Of a stretch of DNA of 64,000 nt, positions 43,602 to 51,356 are shown piece by piece (positions within the stretch are counted from its first letter, which is position 1; each line of letters starts with the position of its first letter). Origin of the DNA: Halorutilales archaeon Cl-col2-1 (GTDB taxonomy: Archaea > Halobacteriota > Halobacteria > Halobacteriales > Afararchaeaceae); contig CP169074.1 of the NCBI GenBank assembly GCA_041891055.1, positions 1,408,001 to 1,472,000 on the forward strand, in the 5' to 3' direction. The translations under genes were made by a program, and so were the position numbers. The notes under the pieces were generated by a model that saw only the letters and a list, made by a program, of their open reading frames with translations, had not been told where the DNA came from and made no database searches.

Positions 43602-43883
43602 ATGATTGACCGTCTAGAGAAGGAAGTCGATATGCTGGAACGCCACCTGACCGTCCTCAAGATGGTCAGCGAGAACGCTCCGATAGGGATAGTAAAGCTG
43701 AGCGACGAGACGGGGTATCCCCACCACAAGATACGTTACTCGCTTCGTGTCCTTGAGGAGGAGAACCTCATAGAGCCGTCGTCACAGGGCGCTATAACCA
43801 CGGAGGACACTGAGGAGTTCATAGAGTCTCTCGACGACAAGATCGACGAGATGACTCAGCGTCTTCAGGACATGAAGATATAG
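43602..43883 (+). CDS. Conserved winged-HTH protein
   Basis: PIGIVKLSDETGYPHHKIRYSLRVLE. Confidence 0.8.
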   Translation: MIDRLEKEVDMLERHLTVLKMVSENAPIGIVKLSDETGYPHHKIRYSLRVLEEENLIEPSSQGAITTEDTEEFIESLDDKIDEMTQRLQDMKI

Positions 43884-43923: not shown

Positions 43924-44904
43924 TCAGTATCCCTCGGCGGACTCTATCTTACCCCACATCGTGGTATAGAGTATTCCGAAGTAGACGAAGATGAGGGGCA
44001 TGAGTATAGCCGAGCCTATAGTCATCAGGTTGAGCGGAAGCGTCGAGACTATAGCCTCGTCGTATCTGAGCCCGGTCGCTGGGTCGACGAGAGGGAACAT
44101 CACCGCGGCGACGTAGGCGACGAGTCCGAAGGCGAGTCCCGCCGCCGACGCGAATGCGACGTAGTTCCTCTTTCTGGATACCGAGTAGACGTAGATGACC
44201 GTCAGACCGAGACTGAGTGCGACGAGTCCAAGGGGTAAGGGGGAGACTAGCGACCCCCTGATTCCGGGGTAGAAGACGTATATGTATCCGAGACCCGCGA
44301 CGAGGAGACCGAGGTACGCCACCGCCGAGATGACGCCGTACTTCGAGACGTCGATGTCGGTCTTGACGCTGAGGAAAGCCGCGCCGTCGAGAACCGTGAG
44401 TGCGACGAGGACGGCTCCGACGACTACTGCGGGGAGGTTGACTATACTCGTCGCGCCGAGGAGCCAGTTAGAGGTGAAGGCTCCGAGGAAGAAGGGCGAC
44501 GCCGTGCTTCCGAATATGAAGGCACGTCCCCACCACTTCTGCCACGTCTCGTCGTGTCTCTGTTCGTAGAACTCGGGTGCGAGCCCTCGTATTATGAGAG
44601 ATCCGAGAATGGCGAACATAAGGAGGTAGTTCCGGCTGAAGAGGTTGGCGTACACCTCGGGGAAAGCAGCGAAGAGGGCTCCTCCGAAGACGACTAACCA
44701 GACCTCGTTTCCGTCCCAGAAGGGTCCTATTGCGGCGAGTATCTTCTCCTGTGCCTCGTGATCCTCGAAGGCGAATATGATCCCCGCTCCGAAGTCGAAT
44801 CCGTCGAGGAAGACGAACATCCCGAGTATGAAGAAGATCAGACCGAACCAGATCTCCTGGAGCGGGAGTCCGAGTATGTGGTGTGTGCTTAGTGTGAGTA
44901 TCAT
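43924..44904 (-). CDS. cydB: Cytochrome bd oxidase subunit II
   Basis: LDGFDFG, GPFWDGNEVWLV. Confidence 0.95.
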   Translation of the reverse strand: MILTLSTHHILGLPLQEIWFGLIFFILGMFVFLDGFDFGAGIIFAFEDHEAQEKILAAIGPFWDGNEVWLVVFGGALFAAFPEVYANLFSRNYLLMFAILGSLIIRGLAPEFYEQRHDETWQKWWGRAFIFGSTASPFFLGAFTSNWLLGATSIVNLPAVVVGAVLVALTVLDGAAFLSVKTDIDVSKYGVISAVAYLGLLVAGLGYIYVFYPGIRGSLVSPLPLGLVALSLGLTVIYVYSVSRKRNYVAFASAAGLAFGLVAYVAAVMFPLVDPATGLRYDEAIVSTLPLNLMTIGSAILMPLIFVYFGILYTTMWGKIESAEGY

Positions 44905-44913
44905 TGTTGTCGT

Positions 44914-46353
44914 TTAGTCGTCACTCGGGACGCCGTAGGGCGTGTCTCTGTCTGTGTCCTTGTCGGTGTCGGTGCCTGCGTCTGTTCCTCTCCTGCCCTC
45001 CTCATCAACTCCGTCAACCTCGGGAGGACCCTCACGTATAATCCTGTATACGACGTACGAGTAGACGCCGAGTATCGCTGCGTATCCGAGGACGAAGCCC
45101 GTGAGTGTTAGAACTGCATCGCCTGAAGTAAGCGTGGGTGAGACTGCATCCTGTGTCTTCATGACTCCCTGTATGACCCACGGCTGTCTGCCGACCTCTG
45201 TGACGACCCAGCCTGTCTCTACTGCGACAATACCGAGAGGTGCCGAGGCTACCATCGCCTTGTGGAGTAGGTCGTCCTCGAAGAGTTCGTCCTTCCACCA
45301 TCTGTAGGCTCCCCAGAATGCGAGGACGACGAACCAGGTTCCTATCGCTACCATGACCCTGAACGCCCAGAAGACTATCGCTACGGGCGGAGCCTGGGTG
45401 TCGAATGACTCCAGACCCCGTATCTCGGCAGTCGGATCGCCCCCGCTCGCTAGCCACGAGGCTCCTCCGGGTATTCCTATTCCGAATATCTCCTTAGCGC
45501 GCGGGTTGGTTATCTGATCGAGACTCGTCGGAACAGCAAAGAGGTACTCGGGGACGTACGACTCGGTCTCCCAGACAGCCTCCATCGCCGCGAACTTCTG
45601 TGGCTGTGTCTCGACTACGTGGCGTCCGTAGGCGTCTCCGTGGATGACCTGGAACGGAGCGACGAGAACCATGACTAGGAGGGCTATCTTGAGAGTCTTC
45701 CTCCAGAACCGCGAGTCACGGTTAGTCCAGACGTGGTAGGCGGCGACGCCTGCCATGAAGACGGCGACCGAGAGGACGGCGGCACTCTGCATATGCGTGT
45801 ACATCCACGGGAACCTCGGGTTGGCGTATGCGGCTATCGGGTCGACGAGTGTGATTATGGGCTGTCCGTCCTCCATGACTGTCTCGAATCCCCTCGGCGT
45901 CTGCATCCATGAGTTGGCGATGAGTATCCAGAGCGCGGAGAGCCACGACCCGAGAGCGACCATCACTCCCGCGAAGAAATGGAGCTTGTCGGAGACTTTC
46001 TCCTTGCCGAAGAGGAAGATTCCGAGGAATGTGGCTTCGAGCATGAAAGCCATCATCCCCTCGACCGCGAGGGGTCCTCCGAATAGCTCTCCGACCGACT
46101 CCGAGAAGGCGGCGAAGTTGGTTCCGAACTCGAACTCGAGGACTATTCCTGTAACTGTGCCGACGACGAAGCTGACTGCAAATATCTTCGTCCAGAAGTC
46201 GCGGAGCTGTTCGTAGACTCCGTCGTCGGATCTCATGCTCTTCCACGTGAAGTAGACGAGGAACGGACCGAGTCCCATCGACATCACGGGGAAGATTATG
46301 TGTACGACCGTCGTCAGCGCGAACTGAAGACGGCTTGCGAATACTGGGTCCAT
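44914..46353 (-). CDS. cydA: Cytochrome bd oxidase subunit I
   Basis: SRLQFA..HI, EFGTN, QPQKFAAME, EVGRQPW. Confidence 0.96.
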   Translation of the reverse strand: MDPVFASRLQFALTTVVHIIFPVMSMGLGPFLVYFTWKSMRSDDGVYEQLRDFWTKIFAVSFVVGTVTGIVLEFEFGTNFAAFSESVGELFGGPLAVEGMMAFMLEATFLGIFLFGKEKVSDKLHFFAGVMVALGSWLSALWILIANSWMQTPRGFETVMEDGQPIITLVDPIAAYANPRFPWMYTHMQSAAVLSVAVFMAGVAAYHVWTNRDSRFWRKTLKIALLVMVLVAPFQVIHGDAYGRHVVETQPQKFAAMEAVWETESYVPEYLFAVPTSLDQITNPRAKEIFGIGIPGGASWLASGGDPTAEIRGLESFDTQAPPVAIVFWAFRVMVAIGTWFVVLAFWGAYRWWKDELFEDDLLHKAMVASAPLGIVAVETGWVVTEVGRQPWVIQGVMKTQDAVSPTLTSGDAVLTLTGFVLGYAAILGVYSYVVYRIIREGPPEVDGVDEEGRRGTDAGTDTDKDTDRDTPYGVPSDD

Positions 46354-46461: not shown

Positions 46462-47586
46462 CTAGTTCTCGACTGGTACGTCGACGAGGTTACCCCACTC
46501 GGTCCAAGAGCCGTCGTAGTTGGCGACCATGCCGTAGCCGAGTAGCTCTGAGAGGACGAACCAGACGAGAGACGACCTTTCGCCTATGCTACAGTAGACG
46601 ATGACGTCCCTGTCAGGGGTGATACCGCGATCCTCGAATAACGACTTGAGTTCGTCGCGGCTCTTGAACCTGCCGTCGTCGTCTATCGTCTTCGACCAGT
46701 GGAAAGCCTCGGCACTCGGAATATGTCCACCGACCTCGACCTGAGGAACCTCTCCCGGCGGCGCGAGGCTCTCACCTCTGAACTCCGACGGACTCCTGAC
46801 GTCGAGTATCTTGGTGTCCTGTCTGAGAGCCGCCTTTACGTCGTCCCTGTACGCACGTATCTGTTCGAGTGTCTGTCCGGCGTCGTAGTCGCGCTGGGTG
46901 AAGTCGGGGGTATCACACGTCTGGTCGTAACATCTCTCGTCCCAGTAGTTCTTGCCGCCGTTCATGAGGTATACGTCGTCGTGTCCGTAGTAGGTCATCA
47001 TCCAGTAGGCGTACGCAGCGAACCAGTTCCACTGGTTACCGTAGAGAACAACAGTCGAGTCCTCGGTGATCCCCTTCTCACCCATTATCTCCTCGTACGA
47101 CTTCTTGTCGGGGACTCCACGGCAGTTCTTCTGGGCTATGTCCTCCTCCCACGTCATCCTCGCCGCACCTGGTATGTGCCAGTCGTCGTAGGTCTCCCTC
47201 TCGGAGTCGACCTCGACGAGGCGCATAGACGTGTCATCTGTGGCGAACTCCTCGAGACGATCCTTCACCCAGTCAGCCTCTACGAGGACGTCGTTGGCGT
47301 ACTCCGACTCCTTTCCGAGAGCCTCATCGGAGAGCTCGTAACACGTCTGTCTCGCGTCGTGGACAGCGGGACTCGTATCGACGAAGCCCTCCTCTTCGAG
47401 GCGTTTAAGACCGTACCTAGTCGTACGTGTCGAGAGAAGTGTCTCCTCGGATATCTTCTTCTGAGTCATCCGTCCACATCTCTCAAGTGTCTTGTATATG
47501 AACTTAGAACTAGGTGGGAGTTCACGGAGTCTTTCTGTGATGGAGGGAGTCTCGGAGTCGGTGTTGGGACTGGAGTCTGATGACAT
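46462..47586 (-). CDS. MarR-like wHTH fused to tandem-domain thiosulfate sulfurtransferase
   Basis: aa about 15-85 LPPSSK..MTQ..I.EETLL..RTTRY.L..L...DARQ; then YANDVLV.ADW, HIPGA, YCSIGERSS, NYDGSWTEW. Confidence 0.85.
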   Translation of the reverse strand: MSSDSSPNTDSETPSITERLRELPPSSKFIYKTLERCGRMTQKKISEETLLSTRTTRYGLKRLEEEGFVDTSPAVHDARQTCYELSDEALGKESEYANDVLVEADWVKDRLEEFATDDTSMRLVEVDSERETYDDWHIPGAARMTWEEDIAQKNCRGVPDKKSYEEIMGEKGITEDSTVVLYGNQWNWFAAYAYWMMTYYGHDDVYLMNGGKNYWDERCYDQTCDTPDFTQRDYDAGQTLEQIRAYRDDVKAALRQDTKILDVRSPSEFRGESLAPPGEVPQVEVGGHIPSAEAFHWSKTIDDDGRFKSRDELKSLFEDRGITPDRDVIVYCSIGERSSLVWFVLSELLGYGMVANYDGSWTEWGNLVDVPVEN

Positions 47587-47754
47587 GGCTAGATATACGG
47601 GCTGAGTTATAATACTCTATGGGTTCGTACATCTAGAGAAAGAACTATGAAACCCGGCAATAAATGTTGGAACTTCGGCGTTTCTCAGAAGTACTAAACA
47701 TATTTTGGGCTTAGAGAACGTATAAGCCCGAACGTGTAATAGATACACACGACT

Positions 47755-48942
47755 ATGGCAGATAAGATAACCGTAGAGGAACTCAGAGACAAGCAGGACA
47801 GTGACGACGACTACGTTCTCGTAGACACGAGGAACCAGGAGGACTACGAGAACTGGCACATCGGCGGCGCAGTCAACGTCGAGTACTCCCACTCCGACGA
47901 CGAACTCAGAGGTGACTGGGAAGGGCTCGTCGAAGACCTCGGAATAGAGACGGACGACGAGATAGTCACGATCTGTGCGAAGGGCAAGTCGGCGAAGTCG
48001 TTCGCCGAGTATCTCGAAGGAGAAGGCTATACAGACGTAAAGAGCGTCGAGGGCGGCATGGAGTCGTGGAGCATGGTCTACGACATAGTCCCCGTAGCCA
48101 CACAGAGTGACGAGATAGACATCATACAGCTTCAGAGGAGATCGAAGGGATGTCTCGGATACATAGTCGGTGACAAGGCGACCGGGGAGGCTGCGGCGAT
48201 AGACGTCACACGTGCGACCGAGACATTCAAGAACGCCGCCGCCGATTACGGCTACGACATCGCTTACGTCTTAGACACACACATACACGCAGACCATATC
48301 TCGGGAGGAAGAAGGTTCGCTGAGGAGCTCGGTGTTCCGTACTACCTCGGAGAGAGAGCGAGAACGAGAGACCCCGACTACGACTTCGACGGCTTAGACC
48401 AGAACGAGGTACTCGAAGTCGGAGAGAACGTAGACATCAAGGCGATCCCGACGCCGGGACACACGACGGGAATGACGTCTTATCTCATCAACGACGAGGC
48501 TCTGACGACGGGAGACACAGTCTTCGTCGAGTCGATAGGACGCACGGAGCTCCAGTTCGCGGGAGACGAGGCAAAGGGAGGTGCTGAGATGCAGTACGAC
48601 ACCCTCCACGACAAGATTCTGTCGGAGCCCGACACAGTCAAGATACTCCCGGGACATTTCTCGGTCACAGACGACGGCGAGTTCATCGACGTCACACCCG
48701 GTACACCGATGATGACGACTGTCGGTTACCTCAGACAGAACAACAGAGCGCTCCAGATGGACGAAGACGAGTTCGTCGATTACATGTTCGACAACATACC
48801 CTCGAAGCCCCCCAACTACGAGAAGGTCATCGCCACCAACAGCGGCGACTACGAGCCTGAGGACAAAGCCGAGGAAGACGAACTCGAACTAGGTCCCAAC
48901 CGCTGTGCCGCGACCGAGGAAAGTATGGTCGCTGACGACTGA
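47755..48942 (+). CDS. Rhodanese + MBL-fold protein (persulfide dioxygenase-like)
   Basis: N-terminal rhodanese (CAKGKSA), DTHIHADHISG, TPGHT, PPNY, GPNRCA. Confidence 0.87.
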   Translation: MADKITVEELRDKQDSDDDYVLVDTRNQEDYENWHIGGAVNVEYSHSDDELRGDWEGLVEDLGIETDDEIVTICAKGKSAKSFAEYLEGEGYTDVKSVEGGMESWSMVYDIVPVATQSDEIDIIQLQRRSKGCLGYIVGDKATGEAAAIDVTRATETFKNAAADYGYDIAYVLDTHIHADHISGGRRFAEELGVPYYLGERARTRDPDYDFDGLDQNEVLEVGENVDIKAIPTPGHTTGMTSYLINDEALTTGDTVFVESIGRTELQFAGDEAKGGAEMQYDTLHDKILSEPDTVKILPGHFSVTDDGEFIDVTPGTPMMTTVGYLRQNNRALQMDEDEFVDYMFDNIPSKPPNYEKVIATNSGDYEPEDKAEEDELELGPNRCAATEESMVADD

Positions 48943-49017: not shown

Positions 49018-49167
49018 ATGCTCGGACTAGAGTCATTATCGGCGAACGTGAAAGCCCTCGCCATAATCGGGATACTACTGACGGAGGCTATCGTGCTGAA
49101 CGCCTTCTACGGATTTCTCGACCAGGCGTTTGCTCCAACCATAATGAAGTACATAAAGGGTGAATGA
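49018..49167 (+). CDS. Small membrane protein preceding TauE (49 aa, absent from ORF track)
   Basis: Manual translation MLGLESLSANVKALAIIGILLTEAIVLNAFYGFLDQAFAPTIMKYIKGE; stop 1 nt before tauE ATG. Confidence 0.65.
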   Translation: MLGLESLSANVKALAIIGILLTEAIVLNAFYGFLDQAFAPTIMKYIKGE

Positions 49168-49168
49168 G

Positions 49169-50170
49169 ATGGTATTAGGAGTAGGCACCTCAACGATAGC
49201 GATCTTCATTACGTTCGGGGTACTGATAGGAGTCCTCTTCGGATTCTTCGGTATGGGAGGCAGTCTCCTCATACTCCCTGCAATACTCGTAGCGGGATAT
49301 CCCGCAGACGTAGCCGCAGGTAACAGCCTCGCGTTCGTCTTCGGAACCGCAGTGATCTCGGTTCTCAAACACCGTGACCACGGACAGATAGACTACAAAC
49401 TCGGTGCCGTCTTCCTCTTAGGCGGCACGCTCTTAGGAGAGACAGTAGGACACGAGATACTCAACATGCTGAAGGCTCGCGGTCTCTCAAACGTCGTCGT
49501 GAGCCTCATACTCGTGACGATACTCGTCGTGATGGGAGTCATCATACTCAGGGACGCGCGTTCGAGCAGTGAGTCGGGAGATGGCGCCGAGTCGGGCGCG
49601 GGAATACAGGAGACTGTCGAGTCGTTCGACGTCCCACCGAAGATAGATATAAAAGGAGGCGTCGAGGTCTCGGTCTGGGTCACCCTCTCTATCGCTTTCT
49701 TCATAGGACTCCTCGCGGGTCTGATAGGCGTGGGCGGAGGCTTCCTCGTGATGCCCGCGATGACATACATACTCGGAGCCCCCGCGGCGGTCGCGGTCGG
49801 AACCGACCTCTTCCAGATCGTGGGTCTCGGAGCCTACGGAACCTTCCTCAACGTCTCGAAGATCAACCTCGGCATAGTGATGCCTCTCTTAGCCGGAAGT
49901 GCTCTCGGAGCACGTATCGGTGCGAGTGCAACGTCAGTCACAGACGGAGAGGAAATAAAGGAGTACTTCGCCGTGATGCTCCTGATATCGGCGGTCTCTA
50001 CCGCTAGTAAGCTCGCGGCTAACCAGTACGGCATCGAGATACTCAATACCGTGAGTATAGTCTTCGTCGTAGGTGCGGCGTTCCTCGTTACGGGCGTCAT
50101 ACTCTACACGAGCATACAGAACATAAGAGAGGAGAGTAGTTCGAGCACTGCTGCGGTCGCCGCGGACTAG
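49169..50170 (+). CDS. TauE/SafE sulfite exporter
   Basis: GFFGMGG and GLIGVGGGF repeats, AVGTDLF. Confidence 0.9.
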   Translation: MVLGVGTSTIAIFITFGVLIGVLFGFFGMGGSLLILPAILVAGYPADVAAGNSLAFVFGTAVISVLKHRDHGQIDYKLGAVFLLGGTLLGETVGHEILNMLKARGLSNVVVSLILVTILVVMGVIILRDARSSSESGDGAESGAGIQETVESFDVPPKIDIKGGVEVSVWVTLSIAFFIGLLAGLIGVGGGFLVMPAMTYILGAPAAVAVGTDLFQIVGLGAYGTFLNVSKINLGIVMPLLAGSALGARIGASATSVTDGEEIKEYFAVMLLISAVSTASKLAANQYGIEILNTVSIVFVVGAAFLVTGVILYTSIQNIREESSSSTAAVAAD

Positions 50171-51228
50171 AACTCGAACTCGGAGTAGTCGGCGACGTAG
50201 CGTCTGTCTTTCTGTTCGTTTTCTCGTTCTCGCGTCTTCTCTTCGACGCTGTCGACGGAGTAAAACTGTATCTGTCTCTCGTGTTTGGTCATGACCTCGA
50301 AGCCGTAGTTCTCGGAGATGTACTTCAGGCTCCTGTCTGTCTCGTCCACGAAGTCGGTGTGTCTACCGAGACGTCTCCCAACGACTTCGTCTGACTTTTC
50401 CTCGACTCGGTCGAGTCTCCGCTCAAAGCTCTCGACGAGGTCTCTGCGTATCTCGTAGCCGACGGAGTTACGTCCCGCTACGACCGCCGCAAGCGACGTG
50501 GTTCCTGTTCCCCAGAACGGATCGAGAACCGTGTCGCTGTAGACCGAGTACATATTTATGAGACGGTAGGGGATCTCGAACGGAAACGCAGCCGACGTGT
50601 CACGGAGAGTCTCAGATCCGTCGTTGAGGTCGAGTGACTGCGACTCACCTCTGACGTCAGTCCAGACGTCCGAGAACCAGTCGTTGCGTTCCTCCCAGAA
50701 GTAGGCACTCTCGTAACGTCTCTCGGAGTGGGGCTCGAACTCCCTCTTCGACTTGCGGAAGACGAGTATATGTTCGTGTTCGAGTGTGACGTAGGCGTTC
50801 GTCGGAAGCATCCCCGACCCCATGAACTTGGCGGCGGAGTTGGTGGGCTTTCTCCACAGAACCGTGGGGAGTGGCTCGTACCCCATCTCCGAGAACTTAC
50901 GTGTTATACGTGAGTGGTTGGGGTATCTCTCGAAGGAGCCGCCGATCTTACGTGTAGCGTCGCCGACGTTTACACAGACTACACCGCCCTCCGAGACTAC
51001 GTCGTCGACCGACTCCCAGACCTCGTCGAGCTCTCGGTGCATGAGACTGAAAGCAGTCCGGTCATCGCCGTCGTCGAGCGCGTCACGTATCTCAGGGTTT
51101 AGATCCGAGAAGACGTCGTCCCACATCTCTATCATTGGATACGGTGGCGATGTAACCACGAGGTTGACATCTCGATCGGATCTCATACGTCTAGAGTCGC
51201 CGAAGAAGACGTCGTGTTGTGTCCTCAT
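50167..51228 (-). CDS. Orphan beta-class amino DNA methyltransferase (m4C, CTAG-type likely)
   Basis: VVTSPPY motif IV precedes VLDPFWGTGTT motif I; no nuclease adjacent. Confidence 0.85.
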   Translation of the reverse strand: MRTQHDVFFGDSRRMRSDRDVNLVVTSPPYPMIEMWDDVFSDLNPEIRDALDDGDDRTAFSLMHRELDEVWESVDDVVSEGGVVCVNVGDATRKIGGSFERYPNHSRITRKFSEMGYEPLPTVLWRKPTNSAAKFMGSGMLPTNAYVTLEHEHILVFRKSKREFEPHSERRYESAYFWEERNDWFSDVWTDVRGESQSLDLNDGSETLRDTSAAFPFEIPYRLINMYSVYSDTVLDPFWGTGTTSLAAVVAGRNSVGYEIRRDLVESFERRLDRVEEKSDEVVGRRLGRHTDFVDETDRSLKYISENYGFEVMTKHERQIQFYSVDSVEEKTRERENEQKDRRYVADYSEFEF

Positions 51229-51356
51229 GTCTCGGCTACTCGACATCCAATCACGAGTTCGAGTATCGGCTCTGTCTCCGGGAGACACGCCACGCATAGA
51301 AACTTCGGTTTTTCAAGTGCGTAGTTCATACTTAGTTAAGAAGAGGTAGTCCGAGG

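Follow-up and report, generated by a model that had tools for sequence, protein, structure and literature searches.

The stretch of 64,000 nucleotides analysed here (the window; contig CP169074.1 of the Halorutilales archaeon Cl-col2-1, GenBank assembly GCA_041891055.1, positions 1,408,001 to 1,472,000) carries on its minus strand a gene (46462..47586) for a protein of 374 amino acids in which a winged helix-turn-helix (wHTH) domain precedes a tandem rhodanese. The locus raises the question of what a DNA-binding domain and a sulfurtransferase do in one polypeptide. On balance, we consider it probable that the fusion is a one-component regulator responding to sulfane sulfur, with its own sulfurtransferase as the sensor and the wHTH as the output. 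Such a regulator would probably switch the neighbouring sulfide-detoxification cluster on when reactive sulfur builds up. The initial annotation of the locus had proposed a sensor of this kind, and the comparative tests all fit it, while 'MarR-like' holds for the core fold only, just one of the two wHTH Cys is conserved, and the operator repeat suggested at the time is at chance level.

The in-frame arrangement of a wHTH, a short linker and a full tandem rhodanese retaining its active-site Cys was upheld by the open reading frame, the Pfam matches and the catalytic motif, and by an alignment of 51 fused sequences. Pfam HTH_24 was matched at residues 30-69 (E 2.2e-7 with the full protein and 2.2e-8 with the N-terminal 100 residues alone) and Pfam Rhodanese in two stretches (E 2.2e-31). 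The NCBIfam model for 3-mercaptopyruvate sulfurtransferase, PRK11493, aligned to residues 99-373 with 119.8 bits, below its cut-off of 250. The winged helix, delimited by predicted secondary structure and by the alignment, covers residues 16-85 (47332..47541, minus strand, as for all parts of the gene). It is followed by a variable linker at residues 86-100 (47287..47331; pLDDT about 75-86), by the N-terminal rhodanese domain at residues 101-235 (46882..47286) and by the C-terminal catalytic rhodanese domain at residues 247-372 (46471..46848), identified by comparison of its loop CSIGERS and by invariant residues. An AlphaFold2 model computed with 51 homologues (pLDDT 88, pTM 0.78) contained helices at residues 16-21, 25-37, 42-49 and 53-65, a wing hairpin formed by strands 69-73 and 81-85, and then the tandem rhodanese, the helix at 53-65 being the predicted recognition helix. 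Mean pairwise identity was highest in the wHTH core (0.68), followed by the two rhodanese domains (0.51 and 0.60) and the linker (0.25).

A search for the same architecture, which had been suggested as a check, recovered it repeatedly. At least 31 full-length copies, that is matches beginning at query residue 20 or earlier, were found in at least 28 of the 401 Halobacteria genomes sampled, spread over five families. A protein database returned dozens of homologues of 352-399 residues with 94-99% query coverage from named Halobacteria genera, labelled 'rhodanese-like domain-containing protein' or 'MarR family transcriptional regulator' and in some cases 'sulfurtransferase', and in the ESM Atlas the protein falls in a 53-member cluster that is archaeal throughout. 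Among the species named for homologues of the fused length are Haloferax profundi, Natrinema saccharevitans and Natronorubrum aibiense. The organism's own genome (2.06 Mb in 4 contigs) holds a second fusion copy, 51% identical by HMMER and 50% by tblastn. The junction between wHTH and rhodanese is also spanned by two metagenome contigs, one of X1 (731 nt, 3 differences) and one of X3 (1914 nt, 109 differences, from another study). This recurrence across genomes, together with the two junction-spanning contigs, rules out an assembly artefact. When the wHTH alone was used in a protein search for longer homologues, the 7 hits were all wHTH-rhodanese proteins, which is weak evidence that the domain has no other fusion partners.

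The wHTH had been described as MarR-like, a description that holds for the core fold and not for the family. A model of the domain by itself (pLDDT 83.8) gave TMq 0.61-0.65 to 4XRF, 8YLG, 1S3J, 5HLG and 5H3R over 74-77 columns. The MarR-fold matches include the DNA-bound MftR, AbfR and MarR, with 40-48% of the target covered, and the domain also resembles AspA, a wHTH protein of about 90 residues. With its span of residues 16-85 it is, however, much smaller than a MarR protein of about 140 residues with flanking dimerisation helices, and it scored below the Pfam cut-offs for MarR (20.5 bits against 24.6) and MarR_2 (22.1 against 27), while passing that for HTH_24 (30.8 against 21.9). No CsoR-type, HTH_5 or HTH_20 Pfam match was obtained in the fusion protein at E 0.01 or better. 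By sequence, the domain is a member of the haloarchaeal NP_1176A family and not a canonical MarR. The name 'NP_1176A family transcription regulator' comes from database sources, and HVO_0772 of Haloferax volcanii appears in a table of PMC12852389 (here and below, articles are cited for those parts of them that were available to us). A literature search on the function of the stand-alone proteins gave no paper, and a search by name returned passing mentions only.

With the N-terminal 100 residues as query, matches were obtained in 401 of 401 genomes, one to nine in each, most of them open reading frames of about 90 residues. Eighteen extracted stand-alone wHTHs showed 44-56% identity to the window domain by tblastn. 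In alignment A4 the stand-alone proteins were 37-50% identical to it, P24, P25, S26, R54, T55, Y58, D77, R79 and Y83 were invariant, and the motif LPPS...RT.RY...D.R..Y was shared. The presumed DNA contacts R54, T55, Y58, D77, R79 and Y83 were identical in all 53 fused and 18 stand-alone sequences, and R57 was kept in 51 of the 53 and in all 18.

Cys residues of the fusion protein lie at positions 37, 82, 155, 219, 224 and 332. Two of them, C37 and C82, had been noted within the wHTH; both are there, but only C82 is conserved, position 37 being Cys in 1 of 53 fused proteins. The 51-sequence alignment contains just two conserved Cys columns, located in different domains: C82 (49/51; codon 47341..47343) on wing strand beta-2, and the catalytic C332 (51/51; codon 46591..46593). 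Every one of the 53 fused proteins carries a wing Cys, at position 82 in 51 and at position 80, on the same wing strand, in the other two, one of which is this genome's own paralogue. In the stand-alone NP_1176A proteins, position 82 is Leu in 18/18 and Cys in 0/18.

The closest solved structures of the rhodanese part were 1UAR, 3HZU and 3AAY, at 43-45% identity, and Foldseek comparison with these and with 3HWI (TMt 0.85-0.93) confirmed two tandem rhodanese domains. No conserved Cys column was present in the N-terminal one in the 51-sequence alignment. C332, the Cys of the active-site motif YCSIGERS, is invariant in 51/51 fused sequences together with G335, R337 and S338, so that the loop reads CxxGxR(S/T) throughout. 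By its domains and catalytic loop the fusion is a tandem-rhodanese sulfurtransferase, for which sulfur transfer activity is predicted. The loop of the fused proteins has a character of its own: it reads C[N/H/S/G]xGERS in 50/50, with no Arg after the Cys (Ser in the window protein), whereas Arg follows the Cys in 68/69 unfused haloarchaeal enzymes (CRIGERS or CRLGERS; CRIGERS in 67/69).

A quick, unrooted IQ-TREE run on the rhodanese part placed 68 of 69 unfused rows in a single clade (SH-aLRT 89; 67 of them at 99). The fused or unfused label requires two changes on this tree, the odd rows being P0027 and P0008; these span only 82% and 90% of the query, lie on short contigs and are probably truncated gene calls. 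The tree fits a single old fusion or fission event.

The gene neighbourhood was then considered. Coordinates and Pfam matches bear out that the fusion gene is divergent from a rhodanese-metallo-beta-lactamase/TauE pair and directly upstream of cydAB. On the plus strand lie the gene for a rhodanese-persulfide dioxygenase fusion (Rhd-PDO, 47755..48942; Pfam Rhodanese and Lactamase_B, HxHxDH motif), whose closest solved chains are 3R2U, 3TP9, 5VE3 (BpPRF) and 4CHL (ETHE1), and that for a TauE/SafE sulfite exporter family protein (49160..50170; Pfam TauE, E 2.9e-39). On the minus strand follow the cytochrome bd oxidase genes cydA (44914..46353; Pfam E 9.7e-150) and cydB (43924..44904; Pfam E 2e-68). 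A spacer of 108 nt without an oligo-T run separates the fusion gene from cydA, which follows it in the same orientation and has GGAGGT 7 nt before its ATG.

The same partners recur in 30 fusion loci from 28 genomes, each taken with about 8 kb on either side, or less at contig ends. Rhd-PDO is present in 28 of the 30, adjacent and divergent in 19 and farther along a co-directional cluster in 9; the two loci without it are L133, whose fusion gene diverges from cydAB, and L140, truncated by the end of its contig. Genes directly downstream of the fusion gene encode a flavoprotein resembling sulfide:quinone oxidoreductase (SQR) in 27/30 loci and a DUF1641 protein, likewise in 27/30. A 1-Cys peroxiredoxin gene (21/30), TauE (19/30) and cydAB (14/30) complete the set. 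The typical layout is a TauE/Rhd-PDO pair transcribed away from a series formed by the fusion gene, SQR, DUF1641, peroxiredoxin and, in some loci, cydAB. The direct succession of fusion gene and cydAB is a minority layout, seen in the window and in the sister genome locus L143. The second copy of the own genome is followed by SQR and DUF1641-like genes and is divergent from another Rhd-PDO; the SQR of this genome has human SQOR as its closest solved chain (E 3e-61, type II). As cydA sits past the peroxiredoxin gene after a short GC-rich spacer, it is probably co-transcribed with that gene in most loci that have it. None of the sulfide-cluster genes was found around unfused CRIGERS enzymes (0/12 loci with 6-kb flanks).

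The association extends to the Rhd-PDO subfamily. Among the matches listed, an Rhd-PDO of at least 57% identity (E at most 2.5e-146) was present in exactly the 28 fusion genomes and in none of the other 373, where the best reached 54%; the threshold of 57% was set after the gap had been seen, and related genomes are not independent observations.

Taken together, the comparative evidence leads us to favour a sulfane-sulfur sensor. The fusion is conserved, with the wHTH as its most conserved segment and with a wing Cys and a loop change specific to the fused form. It is tightly linked to SQR, PDO, TauE, peroxiredoxin and cytochrome bd genes, and its distribution coincides exactly with that of one Rhd-PDO subfamily. 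No other regulator gene accompanies it consistently: HTH_20 genes occur in 3/30 loci and no other HTH gene was detected by Pfam within about 5 kb in 8/12 annotated fusion loci. Lastly, the gene content mirrors that of bacterial persulfide regulons.

In the resting state, the NP_1176A-type winged helix would bind the divergent promoter region and from there control two operons, that of Rhd-PDO/TauE and its own, the latter comprising fusion-cydAB in the window and fusion-SQR-DUF1641-peroxiredoxin(-cydAB) in most relatives. Exposure to sulfide would raise persulfide and polysulfide, and Cys332 of the C-terminal rhodanese domain would pick up sulfane sulfur. This would then be handed to Cys82 of the DNA-contacting wing, or a polysulfide bridge would form, within or between subunits. 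DNA binding would shift and the cluster would be induced; persulfide would then be oxidised to sulfite, the sulfite exported, and respiration would run in a sulfide-insensitive way. Such a pair of conserved Cys, a catalytic one and one of the wing, is what a dithiol-to-polysulfide switch like that of CstR, SqrR or BigR would require; here one of the two would be loaded enzymatically. A covalent relay in the strict sense, in which Cys332 enzymatically loads Cys82 to a persulfide or to a Cys82-Sn-Cys332 bridge and sensing is itself catalysed, is a more tentative proposal, which we hold possible without expecting it.

Among the bacterial systems that invite comparison, CstR has the CsoR fold, and its cst locus presumably includes tauE. 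The cst operon of Staphylococcus aureus combines CstR with the sulfurtransferase CstA, the PDO-rhodanese CstB as well as an SQR of type II (PMC9995734). The haloarchaeal loci place the same gene set beside a DNA-binding protein with two conserved Cys, but CstR is a separate protein, whereas here an archaeal NP_1176A-type wHTH is fused to a sulfurtransferase and one of the conserved Cys is catalytic. SqrR of Rhodobacter and BigR of Xylella and Agrobacterium are repressors of the ArsR family that leave DNA when two of their Cys are bridged by polysulfide. SQR, rhodanese, peroxiredoxin or the PDO-sulfurtransferase Blh belong to their regulons, and the repressors are tied to respiration under sulfide stress (PMC9995734, PMC5823870). 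The fusion is similarly linked to SQR, rhodanese, peroxiredoxin and PDO genes, whereas SqrR and BigR are stand-alone proteins of ArsR fold with both Cys in the regulator and the fusion has no ArsR Pfam match. In the SqrR regulon, loss of a rhodanese prolongs induction, so that a rhodanese shapes the duration of signalling (PMC9995734); it acts there in trans only, according to the same source, and in the fusion it belongs to the same polypeptide. The linkage to cydAB fits both the role of the BigR operon in respiration under sulfide stress (PMC5823870) and the sulfide-resistant respiration that cytochrome bd supports (PMC4815019).

Comparison with archaeal and other fused proteins gave a similar picture of partial likeness. 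Stand-alone NP_1176A proteins such as HVO_0772 share 37-50% identity and the invariant motif with the window domain, but they have about 90 residues, no enzyme domain and Leu at position 82, and the fusion adds 275 residues of rhodanese. Haloarchaeal stand-alone tandem rhodaneses, relatives of Thermus thermophilus 1UAR and Mycobacterium tuberculosis CysA/SseA, are about 55% identical over residues 94-373, with the same fold and catalytic Cys position; unlike the fusion they lack a wHTH, contain about 1 Cys per protein against 3.7 in the fused form and make up a separate clade. The known archaeal wHTH regulator responsive to sulfur is SurR of the Thermococcales, in which sulfur chemistry on Cys of the DNA-binding domain acts as the switch for DNA binding (PMC7278568). 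The switch is, however, a CxxC (PMC7278568), with a disulfide formed by elemental sulfur; SurR has no enzyme domain, and the wHTH of the fusion has no CxxC. ChrB and some ArsR proteins are, like the fusion, DNA-binding regulators with rhodanese-like domains (PMC3817168), but ChrB is bacterial, has a single C-terminal rhodanese-like domain and was described for the sensing of chromate and not for transfer of sulfur, with another HTH family and gene context. In the available parts of a survey of archaeal fusions, rhodanese is mentioned only for a NirA fusion (PMC11237513).

The DNA side of the proposed regulation was less clear. The fusion gene and Rhd-PDO have in common a divergent promoter region of 168 nt (47587..47754, assigned to neither strand), which is 94% identical in the sister genome. 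The inverted repeat GGGCTTA-N9-TAAGCCC (47707..47729), initially taken as a candidate operator, is indeed present, extendable to 10-nt arms at 90% and unique within the window, but the evidence does not support this role, the repeat being at chance level, not conserved and without regulon-like genomic copies. A perfect inverted repeat of at least 7 bp with a 3-20 nt loop turned up in 289 out of 2000 versions of the region made by dinucleotide shuffling, and in 77 out of 380 tiles of 168 nt taken across the window. Genome-wide, allowing 6-nt arms and up to 2 mismatches, 39 copies were counted against 77 for a reversed control, with no regulon signal. In the sister genome the arm reads TAAACCC without a compensating change, and the repeat is missing from the 28 other aligned Rhd-PDO upstream regions. 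By alignment, its right arm appears to overlap the putative BRE/TATA at 47714-47726 in the Rhd-PDO promoter. This element sits about 30 nt ahead of the ATG, as does the consensus GCTCGAAnnnTTwwA of other genomes. A repressor at the BRE/TATA would be mechanistically sensible, yet nothing marks out this repeat.

In other genomes a conserved block 65-95 nt before the Rhd-PDO start is built as a quasi-dyad, CGG(C)AA-N13/14-TT(G)CCG, around an AT-rich core. Alignment of the Rhd-PDO upstream regions located a degenerate copy in the window at 47655..47678, a candidate only. A pattern search for the dyad as CGG(N)AA-N12-15-TT(N)CCG was rejected as not specific, the strict form giving 14 matches against 9.15 expected. 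The upstream region of cydA shares only two 7-mers, and none of the 13 other loci with cydA shows AT-rich boxes upstream of the gene. One clade (loci L116, L117, L118, L119, L121, L122 and L142) has a long intergenic region in which a conserved palindrome TTTACA-N10-TGTAAA, about 130-150 nt ahead of the fusion gene, has GCAATTATTG and GCAATATT boxes at its flanks. L119 shows a compensatory pair within it (TTTACG...CGTAAA). An operator function of the palindrome is possible, as is a small RNA element.

The sister genome (G025) also differs in the coding sequence. Its orthologue, 95% identical (L143:237-1370), has a TGA at the codon of the invariant Trp297 (46696-46698 in the window), which cuts the protein before the catalytic Cys; P0001, a database protein of 299 residues, is the truncated product. 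An identical C>T change at 46696 was found in the 1914-nt metagenome contig of run X3, from another study (depth 150), which shows the allele to be real in a related population. Past the TGA, 77 codons are almost unchanged in the sister orthologue.

Several of these observations weigh against a sensor. No operator could be defined from the repeat, dyad and shared-word analyses. The best conserved word, AATTATT, is present upstream of 19 out of 29 Rhd-PDO genes, where 0.53 were expected, and of 7 out of 10 fusion genes not adjacent to Rhd-PDO, where 0.30 were expected; these figures were obtained on related sequences and against a background of whole, mostly coding loci, which favours AT-rich words. 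In this window the word is not exact, and the two paralogous promoter regions of the own genome have no common word of 9 nt or more. The variability of the linker (0.25 identity) implies no fixed docking between the domains. Rhodaneses are expected enzyme members of sqr-pdo clusters (PMC9163753), and position in such a cluster is therefore by itself no sign of a regulator. In the three of 30 loci with an ArsR-type HTH_20 gene, the latter could be the regulator. Finally, given the TGA at Trp297, the fusion protein may be dispensable in the sister lineage.

The alternative that best survives these comparisons is a bifunctional trigger enzyme, mainly a sulfurtransferase of the SQR/PDO pathway, whose wHTH autoregulates according to the catalytic state and whose Cys82 lies outside the sulfur chemistry. 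We regard it as unlikely; in this reading the enzyme would move sulfane sulfur among SQR products, sulfite and low-molecular-weight thiols, with DNA binding coupled to loaded or free Cys332. The regular presence of rhodaneses in sqr-pdo operons (PMC9163753) would suit an enzyme of this type, as would the invariance of C332, G335, R337 and S338, a fold like that of active enzymes at 43-45% identity and the position of the fusion as the first gene of an operon with SQR in 27/30 loci. It leaves unexplained, however, why a wing Cys is found in 53/53 fused and 0/18 stand-alone proteins, and why the housekeeping enzyme's loop Arg is lost in 50/50 fused proteins.

A reading to which we give very little probability is that the protein is an enzyme only, the wHTH having ceased to bind DNA and serving as a dimerisation, scaffold or partner-docking module of a specialised sulfurtransferase. 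An operator that cannot be defined would be expected of such a protein, some sources name it simply 'sulfurtransferase' or 'rhodanese-like domain-containing protein', and a few loci have a separate HTH_20 gene. Against this, the recognition helix and the wing keep exactly the residues of the stand-alone regulators, no segment is more conserved than the wHTH, and its core superposes on DNA-bound MarR-type wHTHs (TMq 0.61-0.65). Just as improbable, in our view, is a general sensor of thiol oxidation, in which Cys82 and Cys332 form a plain disulfide and the cluster answers peroxide or disulfide stress. The 1-Cys peroxiredoxin in 21/30 loci, thioredoxin and thioredoxin-reductase-like genes near some loci, the Cys-rich tails of many stand-alone NP_1176A proteins and the thiol switches of archaeal SurR and MsvR (PMC7278568) are compatible with it. 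One of the two conserved Cys is nevertheless the rhodanese catalytic Cys, built for persulfide, and the partner genes SQR, PDO and TauE are specific to sulfide and persulfide handling. A role of the wHTH in thiolation of tRNA or other nucleic acids was rejected on the sulfide-oxidation context of 28/30 loci.

Some further observations concern the NP_1176A family. The own genome (G000) and the sister genome have two NP_1176A wHTH matches each, whereas nearly all of the other 399 have two to nine; in the own genome both are fused genes, with no stand-alone copy at E 1e-6 or better. Many stand-alone proteins carry acidic C-terminal tails with one or two Cys (CVECD, CCAE or CAExxxCAE), for example at loci L150, L152, L153, L159 and L162 and in proteins P0171, P0206, P0210, P0224, P0235 and P0237 of alignment A4, and in one stand-alone subgroup (L146, L157) the wing loop contains a Cys. 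Switching by thiols or metals may be a trait of the family as a whole.

Others concern Rhd-PDO and its surroundings. The own 2.06-Mb genome contains four Rhd-PDO paralogues at 100, 92, 65 and 60% identity. That divergent from the second fusion gene (G000:C1:963989-965170, in locus L139, G000:C1:957415-974473) is 92% identical to that of the window, and the intergenic regions are unrelated, which suggests that the Rhd-PDO gene alone was recently duplicated or gene-converted. The other two are in L164 and L165 (G000:C1:281048-282229 and 1220592-1221746): the third Rhd-PDO lies between PAS histidine kinases with a second TauE near, and the fourth is preceded by a DmsR_N+HTH_10 regulator, with TusA and succinate dehydrogenase genes nearby. 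A more distant Rhd-PDO family (47-54% identity), unlinked to the fusion gene, occurs in 185 fusion-free genomes, about half of the sample. HTH_20 genes stand beside Rhd-PDO in three loci (L127:10892-12217, L134:5683-6039 and L135:10795-11148). In L127 the HTH_20 protein, with four Cys, is paired with an unfused CRIGERS rhodanese that is divergent from a second Rhd-PDO/TauE pair, and the two may be a two-protein counterpart of the fusion.

At the edges of the cluster, the window encodes on the plus strand (43602-43883) a 93-residue wHTH protein, convergent with cydB, with CggR_N just below cut-off and a weak HTH_24 match. It shows 99% identity to its counterpart in the sister genome and no relationship to the NP_1176A family. 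On the minus strand, an N6/N4 DNA methylase gene (50167-51297; Pfam N6_N4_Mtase, E 1.8e-35) is convergent with TauE, with an overlap of 4 nt.

In a full-text literature search covering journals outside subscription, no paper dealt with this architecture or with how haloarchaeal SQR/PDO clusters are regulated, and an enzyme-coupled sulfur sensor would represent a so far undescribed design. CstR, SqrR and BigR, the known persulfide sensors, are stand-alone proteins, and how sulfane sulfur is discriminated from oxidants and how sulfurtransferases feed or reset the sensors are still debated. If true, our proposal would offer a direct, testable model for enzyme-catalysed sulfur sensing, in which two conserved Cys keep the test simple. 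As a covalent relay, the fusion would be the first persulfide sensor described from haloarchaea, and no earlier transcription factor would have its own sulfurtransferase built in; sulfide oxidation, sulfite export and sulfide-resistant cytochrome bd respiration would be brought under one regulon. The proposal would further name the regulator of a widespread, horizontally mobile haloarchaeal module made up of SQR, Rhd-PDO, TauE, peroxiredoxin and cytochrome bd. It would also provide the first functional handle on the NP_1176A wHTH family, which is present in 401 of 401 sampled Halobacteria genomes.

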